DNA of 64,000 nt from an uncultured Paraburkholderia sp. (GTDB taxonomy: Bacteria > Pseudomonadota > Gammaproteobacteria > Burkholderiales > Burkholderiaceae), in NCBI GenBank assembly GCA_966421005.1, contig CBJLAJ010000011.1:10202-74201 (forward strand), in the 5' to 3' direction. This document shows positions 9,473 to 37,833 of this stretch, in pieces (the stretch's first letter is position 1; every line of letters starts with the position of its first letter). Below the pieces are notes generated by a model, which was given only the letters and a program-made list of their open reading frames with translations, did not search any database and was not told the origin of the DNA. Both the position numbers and the translations under genes were made by a program.

Positions 9473-10207
9473 GTGGTTCAGACAGACGCTAAGAATGGCG
9501 CGCTCGTGTTGTTTTCGGGCGGCCAGGATTCGGCCACGTGTCTCGCGTGGGCCCTCGATCGCTACGACACCGTGGAAACGATCGGCTTCGATTACGGCCA
9601 ACGCCATCGTGTCGAGCTCGAATGCCGCGAGGGCGTGCGCAGCCAGCTTGTACGCGAGTTTCCGGCATGGGCGCCCCGTCTCGGGGAGGACCACACGATT
9701 GACCTGTCGGTGCTGGGTGCCATCAGTGATACCGCGATGACGCGCGAGATCGAGATCGAGGCGGCGGCGAACGGGTTGCCGAACACCTTCGTACCCGGGC
9801 GCAATCTGATGTTCATGACGATTGCGGCGGCGCTCGCCTACCGGCGGGGCCTGCGAGTGCTCGTCGGCGGGATGTGCGAGACCGATTTCTCGGGCTACCC
9901 GGATTGCCGCGACGATACGATGAAGGCGCTGCAGGTCACGCTCAATCTCGGTATGGCCAGCCGGTTCGTGCTCGAGACACCGCTCATGTGGCTCGACAAG
10001 GCCGATACCTGGCGGCTTGCCGAATCGCTGGGCGGCGAGGCGCTCGTCGAGCTGATCCGCGTCGAGACCCACACCTGTTACGTCGGCGAACGCTCCGAGC
10101 TGCACGACTGGGGCTTCGGCTGCGGCGAGTGTCCGGCATGCCGCCTGCGAAAGCGTGGCTATGAGGCGTTTCGCGCGGGCGAAAAAGTGACGCAGCAGCC
10201 GGCTTAG
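9473..10207 (+). CDS. queC: 7-cyano-7-deazaguanine synthase QueC
   Basis: [35 protein letters not shown]; GTG start at 9473 chosen. Confidence 0.95.
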
Positions 10208-23834: not shown

Positions 23835-25523
23835 TCAGTCGTCCCTCAGCCGCTCTTCGTAGAATCCCTGCATGAACGCGTGCCGCGCGGCATCGTGAAC
23901 CCGTTCCGTGGCTGTCTGCACGCCGATCGATTGCCGGGGAACCCCGTTGGTCTGGTCCCGCGCGGAGGGCCAGTATGGCAGCGCGGCGCCGCCCGAGCCG
24001 TTGTTGTTCGCGATGCGGCCTGGCAAGCCGCCGTCATTCGATCGATTCGGATCGCCCGTTTTGACGAAGCGTTCGATATAGCCCGAAAACGTAGTCGCGA
24101 CTTCTCGGTCGTCCGACGTCCAGGCATATCGAGGCTCGTTGTCCAGATTGCCGAGCACATATTCGACTTCGACGCCGTGTTCCGCGCCCGATGCCTTTGG
24201 CTGCCTGTCTGTTCGATCCGCCGACACCCGCCCCGGATGCGGATGCGTGTATCGATACAAATAGATTGGCGCGTCGCTCGTCGCCCGATGCAGCTGCATC
24301 CACTGCCAGACACTGTGGCCGACGAACACATCCGATGCGAGCGCGAAGCCCGAACGCACGACCTGTTCCCGATCGTTGCCCGGATAGTGCGTGAGCGCCT
24401 CATTGGCGCGTTCGAGAAAGATCGAACCGATCGCATGCCGCCAGTTTTCGGGCGTGGGCTCGGCGTCGCCGAGCACCAGGCTCAACGGGCGCTCGTGCGA
24501 ATTCGCGCCAGTCAGCAGCGGTACCTTCGCCTGCATGCCGTGGCGAAAGACCGACTCGGGCGTCACATTGAGGAAGTAGCCGTCGATGTTCGGCCAGAAC
24601 GGAAAGCGCGGCTTATCCGCGGGGCCGGTCGCGTCGAGCAGGACTTGAGCGGGTATCGCGCGTAGCGCGTCGATCGTAGGCGCGTTCATTTCCTGCGCGA
24701 AATGCCTGGCCGCTGTATCGGCTTCGCCGCGGCTCCAGAATTTGATGGGTTTGAAAGCGGCACCGCTTTCGCCAATGGCGCGCGCGAAAAGTCCCTTCGA
24801 AAGCGGCGATGCCATGTGAGCGCTCACGGAAATCGCGCCGGCCGACATTCCACCGATCGTCACTTTCGACGGGTCGCCGCCAAAACGCGCGATGTTCTCG
24901 CGCACCCAACGCAGCGCCGCGTATTGATCGAGCAGACCATAATTGCCTGCCGAGCCGTGGCTCGACTCGCGCGCCGCGTCCGGGTGCGCGAGGAAACCGA
25001 ACACGCCGAGCCGATAATTGACGGTGACCGTGACGATGTCGCGCGATGCGAGATTCGCCCCATCGTAGCGGCCTTTCGAAGCATCGCCTGCCTGGAAGCC
25101 GCCGCCGTGAAAATAGACGAGTACCGGTAGCTTTGCGTTTGTGTTGCGCGCCGGCGCCCAGACGTTCAGATAGAGGCAATCTTCGGACATCGCGGGGGAC
25201 CGGAACGATGTCGATTCCTCCGAAAACTGCATGCAGCGCGGCGCGAACCGAGTAGCTTGCCGCACGCCGGCCCAGCGCGCGACGGGCTGCGGCTCCCGCC
25301 AGCGATAGCTACCCATCGGCGGCGCGGCGTACGGGATGCCGCGAAAGACGCGCAGCTCGGTATCGTTCGTACGCATGTGCAATCCTTCGATCTCGCCATG
25401 AGGGAGTTGCACGCGCGGCGCAGCTGGGGGGTGCGCAGCGCGGCTTGTGCCCGGCAGCAGCGTCGCGAGCGATATCGCGGCCGCGGCAAGAACGTGGGGT
25501 GACGAACGAGTGAGCGATTTCAT
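23835..25523 (-). CDS. Secreted type-B carboxylesterase/lipase (paralog 1, nucleophile intact)
   Basis: Signal peptide; FRGIPYAAPP, SEDCLYLNVW, HGGGF, GNYGLLDQ, G-M-S-A-G nucleophile elbow, GAEHGVE catalytic His; start ATG 25523 chosen (25595 possible). Confidence 0.92.
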   Translation of the reverse strand: MKSLTRSSPHVLAAAAISLATLLPGTSRAAHPPAAPRVQLPHGEIEGLHMRTNDTELRVFRGIPYAAPPMGSYRWREPQPVARWAGVRQATRFAPRCMQFSEESTSFRSPAMSEDCLYLNVWAPARNTNAKLPVLVYFHGGGFQAGDASKGRYDGANLASRDIVTVTVNYRLGVFGFLAHPDAARESSHGSAGNYGLLDQYAALRWVRENIARFGGDPSKVTIGGMSAGAISVSAHMASPLSKGLFARAIGESGAAFKPIKFWSRGEADTAARHFAQEMNAPTIDALRAIPAQVLLDATGPADKPRFPFWPNIDGYFLNVTPESVFRHGMQAKVPLLTGANSHERPLSLVLGDAEPTPENWRHAIGSIFLERANEALTHYPGNDREQVVRSGFALASDVFVGHSVWQWMQLHRATSDAPIYLYRYTHPHPGRVSADRTDRQPKASGAEHGVEVEYVLGNLDNEPRYAWTSDDREVATTFSGYIERFVKTGDPNRSNDGGLPGRIANNNGSGGAALPYWPSARDQTNGVPRQSIGVQTATERVHDAARHAFMQGFYEERLRDD

Positions 25524-34806: not shown

Positions 34807-35040
34807 ATGGAACGTTACGGCAATCTGAGCGGCCGATCGGGCGTTGTGTCCTATGAGATTGGCCGAGGAAGCATCGCGGTGGAGTTCACGGACGGCTGGA
34901 TCTATCTGTACACGGTACAAGTCACAGGCGCTGACGATGTGGCCGAAATGCGGCGCTTGGCGCGCGCGGGCTCAGGGCTGAGCACTTATATCAGCCGCTT
35001 CGTCAGAGAGCGCTATGCGCGCAAGTATCGCCGCGATTGA
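34807..35040 (+). CDS. Small hypothetical protein (KTSC-like by eye)
   Basis: 77 aa MERYGNLSGRSGVVSYEIGRGSIAVEFTDGWIYLY...GSGLSTYISR; compact, non-shadow ORF. Confidence 0.7.
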   Translation: MERYGNLSGRSGVVSYEIGRGSIAVEFTDGWIYLYTVQVTGADDVAEMRRLARAGSGLSTYISRFVRERYARKYRRD

Positions 35041-35161: not shown

Positions 35162-36904
35162 TTATTGAGCGACGGGCAGGGCAAAACCGTTCAATTGCCC
35201 GCTTTCGACGAGACGTTGGATCAACCCTTGCCGCGGTGCGCTACGGTCCCACGAAGCATGGGTGTTTTCTCCGATGACGAGCTGTGACATCCCCCGATTG
35301 TCGGCAAGAACGGCAGGCCAATTGGGAACGGCGCCCGCGGCTGTTGCTGTCACGCCGTTTTCCGATGACGCCGCCCCATCGCCTGACGTTGCCCCATTCG
35401 GATTGCCCGTCTTCACGAACTGCTCGATGTAGCGCGAGAACATGCGCGAGACGTCGTAGTCCGCGGCTGTCCACGCGTACTGTCGCAGGTGGTCCAGATT
35501 GCCGAGCGAGTAGGCGACTTGCGCGTTGTGCGTCGCGCCGGGCGCGGGTTGGTCGGGCTGCACTGCCTCCGTCGATGCTTTCAGCTCCACTGGCAGCGGC
35601 TGCGTGTAGCGGTAGTAGAAAACGGGCGATTGTCCGGTTTGCCGATGGTGGTCCATCCACCGCCATGTGCTGTGGTTGATGAATAGATCTCCGGCCAGCG
35701 CGGCAGCCGCGTGCTTGACCTCCTCCGTATCGTTGCCGGGATAATGCGCGAGCACTTCTTGAGCGTGGTCCTTGAAGTCCGTTTGAATCGTCTCGCGCCA
35801 GTTTTCCGGCGTTGGGGCCGCTTTGCCAAGCAGGGCGGTGAATGGCTGTTCTTGTGCGTTGGAGCCCACGAGGAGGGGCACCTGCGCCTGGCCACCGCTG
35901 GCGAACGTCTGCTCCGGTGAGGCAGGAAGGAAGTGGCCGTCGACATGCGGCCAGAAAACGGGCGAGCCGGGCGCGAACTTGAGCTGTGTGGACGCCGTGA
36001 GCAACGTGCGCGCCGGCAACGAGCGCAGCTGCTGCAGCGACGCCGCGCCGACGCGCGTCGAGAACTGTGCCGCGGCCTCGACCGCCTGCTCGCGCGTCCA
36101 GACACGATTCGGCGCGAACGCGCCACCGCTCTCGCCGATTGCCCTCGCGAAGAGTCCGCGCGAGAGCGGCGAAACCATGTGAGTGCTCACCGCGACCGAT
36201 CCGGCCGCATTGCCGGCGATCGTGACTTGCGACGGATCGCCGCCGAACTGGGCGATGTTGTCTCGTACCCAGCGCAGCGCGGCGACTTGATCCAGCAGGC
36301 CGTAGTTGCCGGTTGTACCGTTCGGCGATTCCTTTGCCGCATCGGATGAGGCGAGGAATCCGAATACGCCCAGCCGGTAGTTGACCGTCACCGCGATGAC
36401 CCCGCGCGAGGCCATATTCGCACCATCATAGCGAGGCTCCGAGCCATCCCCCGAGACGAACCCGCCACCGTGGAAATAGACGAGCACGGGCAATTTGGCC
36501 TCCGCGTTGCTCGCCGGTGTCCACACGTTCAGGTAGAGGCAGTCCTCGCTCATTTCTTTCGACCGGAAATCCGGCTTGACGGCGCCGGCGGGCGTGGTCT
36601 GCATACAGCGAGGCGCGAACTGGCGAGCTTTCAGCACGCCGGCCCAGCGGGCGACGGGTTGCGGCTCGCGAAAGCGGAAGTCGCCGACGGGCGGCGCGGC
36701 ATAGGGAATGCCGCGAAAGACGCGCACATCCTTGTGTTGACCGCGCATTTTGATGCCCTCGACGACGCCGTCCGCAAGCCGGACTTCGGGCGCCAGTGGC
36801 GCGCGGATGGCATGGGCGCTGGGCGCGATGCACAAGAGGGAACCGCTGGCGGCGAGCGCCGCTACGACGGTACGTTGGGTGACACGATTGATCGAAACTC
36901 TCAC
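35162..36904 (-). CDS. Secreted type-B carboxylesterase-like protein (paralog 2, nucleophile Ser replaced: GNAAG)
   Basis: AAAGGAGG RBS then GTG at 36904; signal peptide; FRGIPYAAPP, SEDCLYLNVW, HGGGF, GNYGLLDQ, TIAGNAAGS, GATHNAQ. Confidence 0.9.
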   Translation of the reverse strand: MRVSINRVTQRTVVAALAASGSLLCIAPSAHAIRAPLAPEVRLADGVVEGIKMRGQHKDVRVFRGIPYAAPPVGDFRFREPQPVARWAGVLKARQFAPRCMQTTPAGAVKPDFRSKEMSEDCLYLNVWTPASNAEAKLPVLVYFHGGGFVSGDGSEPRYDGANMASRGVIAVTVNYRLGVFGFLASSDAAKESPNGTTGNYGLLDQVAALRWVRDNIAQFGGDPSQVTIAGNAAGSVAVSTHMVSPLSRGLFARAIGESGGAFAPNRVWTREQAVEAAAQFSTRVGAASLQQLRSLPARTLLTASTQLKFAPGSPVFWPHVDGHFLPASPEQTFASGGQAQVPLLVGSNAQEQPFTALLGKAAPTPENWRETIQTDFKDHAQEVLAHYPGNDTEEVKHAAAALAGDLFINHSTWRWMDHHRQTGQSPVFYYRYTQPLPVELKASTEAVQPDQPAPGATHNAQVAYSLGNLDHLRQYAWTAADYDVSRMFSRYIEQFVKTGNPNGATSGDGAASSENGVTATAAGAVPNWPAVLADNRGMSQLVIGENTHASWDRSAPRQGLIQRLVESGQLNGFALPVAQ

Positions 36905-36993
36905 TGTCTTGCCTCCTTTGTGGTTGAACAGTGGGTCCATGACCCCACCGTCGGGTGGGAGGCTCGATCATTGGCGTCGAAAAAATCGGGGCG

Positions 36994-37019
36994 CGTCTCG
37001 ATTTTTCGAATCGGACGAA
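36994..37019 (-). promoter_or_regulatory. Upstream motif shared with esterase paralog 1 (TTCGTCC-GA-TTCGAA-AAATC-GAGACG, sense strand)
   Basis: 19/26 ungapped identity to 25611-25636; about 90 nt upstream of the start codon. Confidence 0.55.
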
Positions 37020-37114
37020 GTAACGTGTCATCAGTTTGGCTTTTGGCGCGAACCAGTGGTCAGTGGGCTGGCCCGTCGCTCGCCGATGGTCGGCCTTGCG
37101 GGAGGATCGCTCGT

Positions 37115-37159: not shown

Positions 37160-37414
37160 GTGACAATCACCACGTTATCGAGCCGTGAGCTTAATCAAGA
37201 CGTGACGCGCGCGAAGAAGGCGACGAAAGACGGTCCCGTATTCATTACGGATCGGGGGCGACCGGCCCATGTGCTCTTGAGTTTCGAGGAATATCAAAAG
37301 CTAATCGGGCGGCATCGCAACATCGCTGACGCTCTTTCTATGCCAGGAGTCGAAGATATCGAATTCGAGCCGCCGCGAGCTCGGATCGAATCAAAACCGG
37401 CGGACTTCAAATGA
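37160..37414 (+). CDS. Phd/YefM family antitoxin
   Basis: SSRELNQD..RAKKAT..GPVFITDRGRPAHVLLSFEEYQ; overlaps the PIN toxin start (ATGA). Confidence 0.9.
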   Translation: MTITTLSSRELNQDVTRAKKATKDGPVFITDRGRPAHVLLSFEEYQKLIGRHRNIADALSMPGVEDIEFEPPRARIESKPADFK

Positions 37415-37833
37415 TGTTCGTGCTCGACACCAATGTCGTTTCGGAATTGCGGAAAGTCAAAGCAGGCAAGGCGGATGTCAATGTAACGGCGTGGGTGGCA
37501 AGCGTTGACGCAGCTTGGTTGTTTATTTCAGCCATCACCGTCATGGAACTCGAGACGGGGGTTCTTCAGGTTGAGCGGAAGGACGCGAGCCAGGGCGCGC
37601 TGCTGAGAAACTGGCTCGATCACCATGTGTTGCCTGAGTTTGCCAGCCGCGTTTTGCCCATCGATATGTCCGTCGCGCAGCGATGTGCTCGATTGCATGT
37701 ACCGGATCGGCGATCGGAACGCGATGCCCTTATTGCAGCGACGGCGCTTGTGCATGGGATGGCGGTCGTTACGCGCAATGTATCCGACTTCGCACCGACG
37801 GGCGTCGAAATCGTGAATCCGTGGATGGTGTGA
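37411..37833 (+). CDS. vapC: PIN-domain (VapC family) toxin
   Basis: VLDTNVVSE, ELETG, RDALIAATALVH, VTRNVSDF. Confidence 0.93.
   Translation: MMFVLDTNVVSELRKVKAGKADVNVTAWVASVDAAWLFISAITVMELETGVLQVERKDASQGALLRNWLDHHVLPEFASRVLPIDMSVAQRCARLHVPDRRSERDALIAATALVHGMAVVTRNVSDFAPTGVEIVNPWMV

Follow-up and report, generated by a model that had tools for sequence, protein, structure and literature searches.

The stretch of DNA analyzed here (hereinafter, the window) comprises 64,000 nucleotides from an uncultured Paraburkholderia sp. (positions 10,202 to 74,201 of contig CBJLAJ010000011.1, assembly GCA_966421005.1) and carries, on its minus strand, two genes for proteins of the carboxylesterase fold, denoted paralog 1 and paralog 2, the coordinates of which are collected in Table 1. 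Our subject is paralog 2, in which alanine occupies the position of the catalytic serine and which almost certainly is a functional protein, yet not a canonical esterase. The reading frame of this gene contains ...VTIAGNAAGSVAV..., where codon 233 is GCG, and the nucleophile elbow of the product reads V-T-I-A-G-N-A-A-G-S. A preliminary description of the window had reported this GNAAG elbow and its alanine codon, together with an intact open reading frame (ORF), a strong ribosome-binding site (RBS), the HGGG loop and the triad histidine; all these features are present, and the first is borne out both by the reading of the ORF and by the alignments with solved structures given below. As also described, each paralog begins with a segment that resembles a signal peptide and has, after G(D/N)PN, an insert of low complexity; the two proteins are moderately similar (Table 1) rather than closely so. 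Databases label paralog 2 and its relatives "para-nitrobenzyl esterase" or "carboxylesterase".

The Pfam match of paralog 2 to PF00135 (COesterase; type-B carboxylesterase/lipase, ESTHER block C) spans residues 39-532, with a score of 397 bits (cut-off 27; E 2e-118). The Pfam scan retrieved PF00135, PF07859 and PF20434 only, with no match to the antigen 85/esterase D family, and delineated a single domain, with no anchor, repeat or adhesion domain; the NCBIfam search gave no equivalog, only sub-threshold lipase matches, and the sequence shows no hydrophobic stretch at its C-terminus. HMMER alignments with the fumonisin B1 esterase (8s6d, E 1e-73) and the pNB esterase (1c7i, E 2e-69) place Ala233 under the serine of the GESAG motif in both cases, and Glu352 and His459 align with the acid and the histidine of both enzymes. 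In an AlphaFold2 model built from a 48-sequence alignment (mean predicted local distance difference test score, pLDDT, of 76; predicted template modeling score of 0.83), Ala233 is located between strand 222-232 and helix 234-244, that is, in the nucleophile elbow, and pLDDT is below 50 for residues 1-34 and for the insert 506-523. The fold is intact, with Foldseek template modeling (TM) scores of 0.73-0.86 to cholinesterases (AChE), liver carboxylesterases (CES1), FumD and bacterial carboxylesterases. Judging from these alignments, paralog 2 is a member of the PF00135 fold family but lies outside the enzyme class that is defined by the triad, and the canonical acyl-enzyme mechanism is closed to it. 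Orthologs with alanine and orthologs with serine at position 233 do not differ in the HGGG loop, Glu352, His459 or the H-N-A-Q signature. Two further candidate changes were accordingly dropped: decay of the H-N-A-Q signature after the histidine, which is the same in the Ser-bearing orthologs, and recruitment of the serine that follows the elbow (GNAAG-S) as a shifted nucleophile, because the Ser-bearing orthologs have this serine too (GNSAG-S).

The serine-to-alanine replacement is fixed in a group of closely related proteins. The 90%-identity cluster that includes the window protein consists of 13 distinct sequences, drawn from ENA, Logan, JGI and NCBI assemblies, that are 90.7-100% identical to it, and GNAAG is found in 13 of the 13; in addition, the alanine codon is covered without a difference by contigs from two DNA runs and from one RNA-Seq-labeled run (RNA status uncertain). 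The codon identified in the preliminary description is thus confirmed by the 13 cluster members and by contigs from independent runs, and a base-call or assembly error is excluded by these data jointly with the codon data below. The 13-kb syntenic neighborhoods of two other loci with the alanine (L021 and L022) show 88-89% DNA identity to the window; because this is well under the usual species boundary of 95% DNA identity, the alanine state is common to several species-level lineages. Trinickia species are the only named relatives among the database matches, and the clade with the alanine belongs to soil Burkholderiaceae.

The closest relatives outside the cluster (P0003, P0136/P0005, P0004 and genome G001) are 87.7-89.7% identical to paralog 2 at the amino acid level and all contain GNSAG, as does P0006, at about 79-80% identity. 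Loci of both states have the same gene order, namely hslV-hslU, the esterase, a 77-aa ORF, a response regulator and sensor kinase, and argB, so the Ser-bearing relatives are true orthologs. In the maximum-likelihood tree, the four sampled Ala sequences comprise one clade (support 93/94) nested among the Ser-bearing orthologs, with P0003+P0136 as the sister group, followed by P0004+G001 and then P0006, all with serine. All Ser lineages have TCG as codon 233, the window and L021 share GCG, and L022 and L026 have GCC; these codons are explained by a single T>G transversion (TCG>GCG) on the stem of the Ala clade and a subsequent synonymous GCG>GCC change. The tree and the codons indicate that the paralog 2 lineage is an old ortholog that lost its serine, not a duplicate of an active enzyme, and that the loss is young and limited to one small clade, yet fixed across several species-level lineages. 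On the stem, nine residues became fixed: F5I, A12T, E75D, A103T/P104T/V105P, S233A, E382Q and residue 516. The first two of these changes fall in the signal peptide, and the replacement of APV by TTP at positions 103-105 lies between Cys100 and Cys122.

Pairwise ratios of nonsynonymous to synonymous substitution rates (dN/dS, NG86) are 0.060-0.086 within the Ala clade, at dS of 0.23-0.70, and 0.11-0.21 among the Ser-bearing orthologs. A branch model (GY94/F3x4) written for this analysis and applied to 9 sequences with 558 gap-free codons gave a dN/dS (omega) of 0.094 under a single ratio; two ratios, 0.120 for the background and 0.071 for the Ala clade, fit better (twice the log-likelihood difference, 2dlnL, = 12.1, p = 5e-4), and fixing omega of the Ala clade at 1 made the fit worse by 2dlnL = 669. 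The fit improved further (p = 0.008) with three ratios, 0.23 for the stem, 0.063 for the crown and 0.117 for the background. There was a brief burst of amino acid change on the branch where the serine was lost, followed by tighter constraint than in the catalytic orthologs. Strain-specific decay of paralog 2 is excluded by the dN/dS values and the branch model. The preliminary description envisaged a serine-to-alanine change fixed under purifying selection, and this holds within the Ala clade (omega 0.07) but does not extend to the closest syntenic orthologs (88-90% amino acid identity), which keep the serine; retention of serine in close relatives, which that description regarded as a sign of decay or error, is a fact, and both decay and error are nevertheless excluded. 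What stands is a maintained nucleophile-less protein of the cholinesterase fold, which evolves under purifying selection, is represented by pieces in metatranscriptomes and has the other pocket residues intact.

Pieces of the gene are present, at 97% identity or higher, in three metatranscriptome-labeled runs from two studies, in contigs that cover positions 35878-36110 (X24), 35291-35506 (X26) and parts of 35812-36212 (X28); the coverage is patchy, and likewise for the neighboring housekeeping genes. Upstream of the gene, the region from -120 to the start is near-invariant among the paralog 2 orthologs of both states and includes TTCGTCYGATTCGAAAAATCGAGACG, a motif located at -115. At -124 of a third paralog (see below) there is a related TTCGTCTGATTT...TTCGAA element, and the upstream motif shared by paralogs 1-3 is compatible with common regulation, without proving it.

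The third family member (paralog 3) is encoded on another contig of the same genome (G000:C21:3736-5391; L030 1195..2937, minus strand). It also belongs to PF00135 (E 7e-115) but combines a G-Q-G-A-G elbow with a degenerate oxyanion loop, H-E-G-D, so that the nucleophile is missing in two of the three copies of this genome; its GQGAG relatives (P0110, P0117, G001:C124) group as a clade of their own. The preliminary notion of a pair consisting of an active and a dead esterase is therefore too narrow, all the more so because triad loss is rampant in the family across the genus. Among 122 sequences (119 representatives of clusters at least 49% identical to paralog 2, and the three paralogs of this genome), the nucleophile position is occupied by Ser in 84, Thr in 27, Ala in 6, Gly in 4 and Leu in 1; the histidine is replaced in 14, mostly by Gln, and the acid in 11, and the complete Ser/(Glu or Asp)/His triad is present in 65 of the 122. 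Fitch parsimony on the family tree requires at least 15 changes between complete and incomplete triads and at least seven between Ser and other residues; within the paralog 2 subfamily, serine was replaced by alanine at least three times (the window clade, P0016 and P0047/G010). Other defective lineages, which lost Ser, His or the acid independently, have open frames and are likewise under purifying selection, with dN/dS of 0.15-0.23.

A census covered 25 species-representative genomes from the genus and all copies in them that reached an E-value of 1e-100 or better; it yielded 71 copies, 41 with complete and 30 with defective triads. At least one defective copy was detected in 20 of the 25 genomes and at least one complete copy in 24, the exception being a 64%-complete assembly. 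As a control, we used the 86 proteins of single-domain size (470-700 aa) among the best 150 matches, taken as representatives of 50%-identity clusters, and the triad was complete in 81 and incomplete in 5 of these. The contrast between about 45% of defective triads in the genus family and 6% in the control is large, and we give it without a p-value because the two sets were clustered at different levels and consist of sequences that are not independent.

Several members of this family merit separate mention. In the Thr clade (L041 G002:C16:50138-51811, L046, L047; P0070-P0107), the elbow is GETTG, GETAG or GETSG, accompanied by HGGG, by SNSQES with the acid Glu, and by an invariant APHRSE motif with the His. 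This conserved GET[T/A]G...APHRSE type is found at a separate locus in 12 of the 25 genus genomes and could be either a natural form of the fold that uses Thr as nucleophile or one more clade without catalysis. The tandem paralog 2-like copy G004:C61:18179-19822 (L031) contains one in-frame TAG and a defective acid position and, unlike the window gene, is probably a true pseudogene. Among the top representative matches are also proteins of 1269-3380 aa (P0137-P0141) with 3-7 separate carboxylesterase-like stretches each, which may be tandem-domain proteins or fused gene models.

With regard to the function of paralog 2, we regard binding without hydrolysis as the most likely mechanism, with moderate confidence. 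Under this proposal, the exported esterase-fold protein would bind the ester-type ligand of the Ser-bearing orthologs, or a related one, without turnover, and its role, in the periplasm or outside the cell, would be to bind, sequester or present this ligand. The APV to TTP change in the disulfide-bounded loop would retune the entrance of the pocket; we take the Cys100-Cys122 loop to be analogous to the cholinesterase omega loop and the PnbA loop 66-74, which border the gorge. There is a precedent for such behavior of the fold: the Foldseek matches of paralog 2 include mouse AChE S203A with acetylthiocholine (PDB 2ha5), in which the engineered Ser-to-Ala variant folds and holds the substrate without hydrolysis. 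The fold, the substitution and its position are the same, but S203A is a laboratory mutant and was not fixed by selection. Export, non-hydrolytic binding and the nature of the ligand are all inferred.

Several considerations weigh against this proposal. The strict retention of the histidine, the glutamate and HGGG would equally fit a leftover catalytic role. The loop that carries the TTP change is poorly modeled (pLDDT 54-60); the N-terminus that suggests export was read by eye; and the branch model, our own implementation, draws on 9 sequences. The metatranscriptome contigs, which we read as evidence of transcription of paralog 2 in soil, are patchy and provide no measure of its level.

The best surviving alternative, which we nonetheless consider unlikely, is that paralog 2 is still an enzyme, in which a His-Glu dyad and the oxyanion hole activate water or another small molecule directly, in the manner of α/β-hydrolase-fold enzymes that can dispense with their nucleophile, or in which Thr103 or Thr104 serves as the nucleophile. 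Cofactor-independent dioxygenases of this fold use a His/Asp dyad, and ESTHER lists fold members by which HCN, H2O2 or O2 is activated, which speaks in favor of such chemistry. Furthermore, the Ala clade shows no variation in His459, Glu352 or HGGG, its omega is below that of the Ser-bearing orthologs, and the two threonines arose on the same branch as S233A. Given, however, that dN in the clade is only about 0.045, the preservation of three or four sites does not discriminate between catalysis and other functions, and the histidine is often kept in non-catalytic members of the fold (ESTHER). Sister lineages of the same subfamily lose the histidine or the acid instead of the serine, so the shared function apparently does not need the dyad. 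It also counts against this alternative that no PF00135 protein is known to us to function once the serine is gone.

Still less probable, in our assessment, is the model put forward in the preliminary description, namely that the dead paralog is a decoy for an inhibitor of paralog 1, as in the PsXLP1/PsXEG1 case, or a neuroligin-like adhesin. The presence of paralog 1, with its intact triad, 10 kb from paralog 2, the motif at about -115 in all three paralogs, which is compatible with co-regulation, and the occurrence of a complete-triad copy beside defective ones in 24 of the 25 genus genomes speak in favor of such a model. Paralogs 1 and 2, however, are 53% identical and split before the radiation of the genus, so that the surfaces recognized by an inhibitor would have diverged; sister species hold a Ser-bearing ortholog at the same locus, which therefore did not evolve as a decoy; and a covalent small-molecule inhibitor could not be trapped without the serine. 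Paralog 2 has no anchor, repeat or adhesion domain that would fit an adhesin, and these soil bacteria have neither a known inhibitor nor a known host; with no inhibitor, partner or anchor found, the decoy or adhesin role gains no support. Finally, the possibility that paralog 2 is non-functional, either drifting toward a pseudogene or produced by a sequencing or assembly error, might be raised on the grounds that the closest orthologs keep the serine and that the tandem copy of a relative (G004:C61:18179) has an in-frame stop, so that family members sometimes decay, but it is effectively refuted by the presence of alanine in 13 independent sequences with all frames open, the later synonymous GCG>GCC change at codon 233, the omega of 0.07 with omega = 1 rejected (2dlnL = 669), the conservation of the leader and the RBS, and the agreement of several runs at codon 233.

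Binding without hydrolysis, the reading we prefer, can be set against several known systems. The best sequence matches with solved structures are the fumonisin B1 esterase FumD (8s6d; also among the best matches by fold, with a target-normalized TM-score of 0.86) and the p-nitrobenzyl (pNB) esterase PnbA of Bacillus subtilis (1c7i, 1qe3), with which paralog 2 shares the bacterial PF00135 fold, an HGGG-type oxyanion loop and the positions of the acid Glu and the His. FumD is an exported enzyme. At about 30-35% identity, both differ from paralog 2 in having GESAG with the catalytic serine instead of GNAAG; paralog 2 also contains the extra disordered Gly/Ala/Ser insert and has H-N-A-Q after the histidine, not H-G-x-E.

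The animal non-catalytic cholinesterase-like proteins include neuroligins, neurotactin, gliotactin, glutactin and thyroglobulin's C-terminal domain (ESTHER; Marchot reviews). Like paralog 2, they belong to this fold family and have the nucleophile serine replaced and the pocket partly kept, and they are extracellular and act by binding. These proteins are eukaryotic, ancient, mostly membrane-anchored or part of larger proteins, and bind protein partners, whereas paralog 2 is bacterial, a free-standing domain that is predicted to be exported, and the product of a recent, independent loss of serine among Ser-bearing orthologs. There is no common descent with the animal clades: in the tree, the nearest relatives of paralog 2 are the Ser-bearing bacterial orthologs.

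The MPT51 pocket is remodeled, whereas in paralog 2 the serine alone is replaced. MPT51 (FbpC1) of Mycobacterium tuberculosis is, in the passage of PMC8875947 that cites Wilson et al. (2004, J Mol Biol 335:519), a non-catalytic α/β-hydrolase paralog of the antigen 85 mycolyltransferases. As presented there, it resembles paralog 2 in being bacterial, secreted and a dead paralog of the α/β-hydrolase fold beside active ones. It is of the antigen 85/esterase D type, unrelated to PF00135, and paralog 2 is thus an analog and not a member of that family. In view of this precedent, the preliminary statement that no bacterial pair of this kind had been described was too broad, although MPT51 comes from a different family. 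The limited open-access literature yielded neither a bacterial non-catalytic PF00135 protein nor a study of a Trinickia esterase, which is no proof that none exists.

For the Ala clade and for about 40% of the copies in the genus, the database name predicts an activity that the canonical triad cannot give. The clade represents a clean case of the birth of a pseudoenzyme, in which one dated base change separates the Ala form from Ser-bearing orthologs at the same locus, selection tightened after the serine was lost and the branch of this loss also carries a change in the pocket loop; the two states lend themselves to expression and direct comparison. If paralog 2 indeed is a binding protein, the non-catalytic branch of the cholinesterase fold would extend from animals to bacteria, and soil bacteria would possess an unrecognized route for handling ester compounds. 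Far more tentatively, and as a generalization that we rate as rather unlikely, non-hydrolyzing exported forms (in which the nucleophile is replaced by Ala, Gly, Leu or Thr, or the His by Gln) might recur throughout the genus as a set that is selected beside at least one active copy; such proteins might capture, present or buffer esters of fungal or plant origin, possibly as heterodimers formed via the usual dimer interface of the fold, and bacteria would thereby have a first equivalent of the non-catalytic cholinesterase-like proteins of animals.

Table 1. Features of paralog 2 and related elements in the window (positions are those of the 64,000-nucleotide window)
Feature	Position	Strand	Remarks
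Paralog 2 coding sequence	35162..36904	-	580 aa from GTG; PF00135 carboxylesterase fold; ORF intact
Ala233 codon (GCG), nucleophile site of the G-N-A-A-G elbow	36206..36208	-	sequence and alignment
Sec-type signal peptide (putative), residues 1-32	36809..36904	-	by inspection
HGGG oxyanion-hole loop, His145-Gly148	36461..36472	-	same as in Ser-bearing orthologs
Glu352, triad acid in GSNAQE, kept	35849..35851	-	alignment
His459, triad histidine in GATHNAQ, kept	35528..35530	-	alignment
Thr103-Thr104-Pro105 in the loop between Cys100 and Cys122	36590..36598	-	APV in Ser-bearing orthologs
Low-complexity Gly/Ala/Ser/Thr insert, residues 506-523	35336..35389	-	predicted disordered
Shine-Dalgarno sequence AGGAGG	36912..36917	-	7 nt upstream of the GTG start at 36904
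Upstream motif TTCGTCCGATTCGAAAAATCGAGACG at -115	36994..37019	-	conserved in paralog 2 orthologs; partly common to paralogs 1 and 3
Paralog 1	23835..25523	-	GMSAG; complete Ser/Glu/His triad; 53% identical to paralog 2

The start of paralog 2 differs between our reading and the public gene calls, which in the Ala clade begin at ATG 36940 and give a product of 592 aa. This ATG is not preceded by an RBS; because it is replaced by CTG, GTA or GTG in orthologs, one of which also has a 1-nt insertion between the ATG and the GTG, the conserved start is GTG 36904. The N-terminus that follows consists of a basic n-region, a hydrophobic core and AHA ahead of Ile33 (read by eye), from which export is predicted. 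Neither a lipobox nor a twin-arginine motif was seen by eye in residues 1-32, and on these grounds export as a lipoprotein or through the twin-arginine (Tat) pathway was dropped.

The leader of paralog 2 (36905-37025, minus strand) is conserved and contains, about 40 nt upstream of the Shine-Dalgarno GGAGGC, a GCCUCC six-mer complementary to it, as well as a CCCACC/GGUGGG hairpin; the minimum free energy is -45.6 kcal/mol (z = -2.4 versus shuffles). Sequestration of the Shine-Dalgarno sequence in this leader, and hence translational control of paralog 2, is possible. An Rfam scan in and around paralog 2, leader included, gave nothing credible, and nothing was found in a scan for sigma-70 promoters and terminators.

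Downstream, the 77-aa ORF (34807-35040, plus strand) is convergent with the esterase gene and has no Pfam match. It is called at the same position in the Ala loci L021 and L026, is not called in L022, and is called in the P0003/P0136 Ser loci as well (77-78 aa). On the other side, a Phd/YefM antitoxin gene (37160-37414) and a PIN (VapC-type) toxin gene (37411-37833), both on the plus strand of the window, separate hslU from the esterase; L021 and L022 have the pair at this place too. This vapBC-type pair does not occur in the Ser loci for which the hslU flank is present (L023-L025, L027), and its insertion can therefore be placed on roughly the branch on which the serine was lost.

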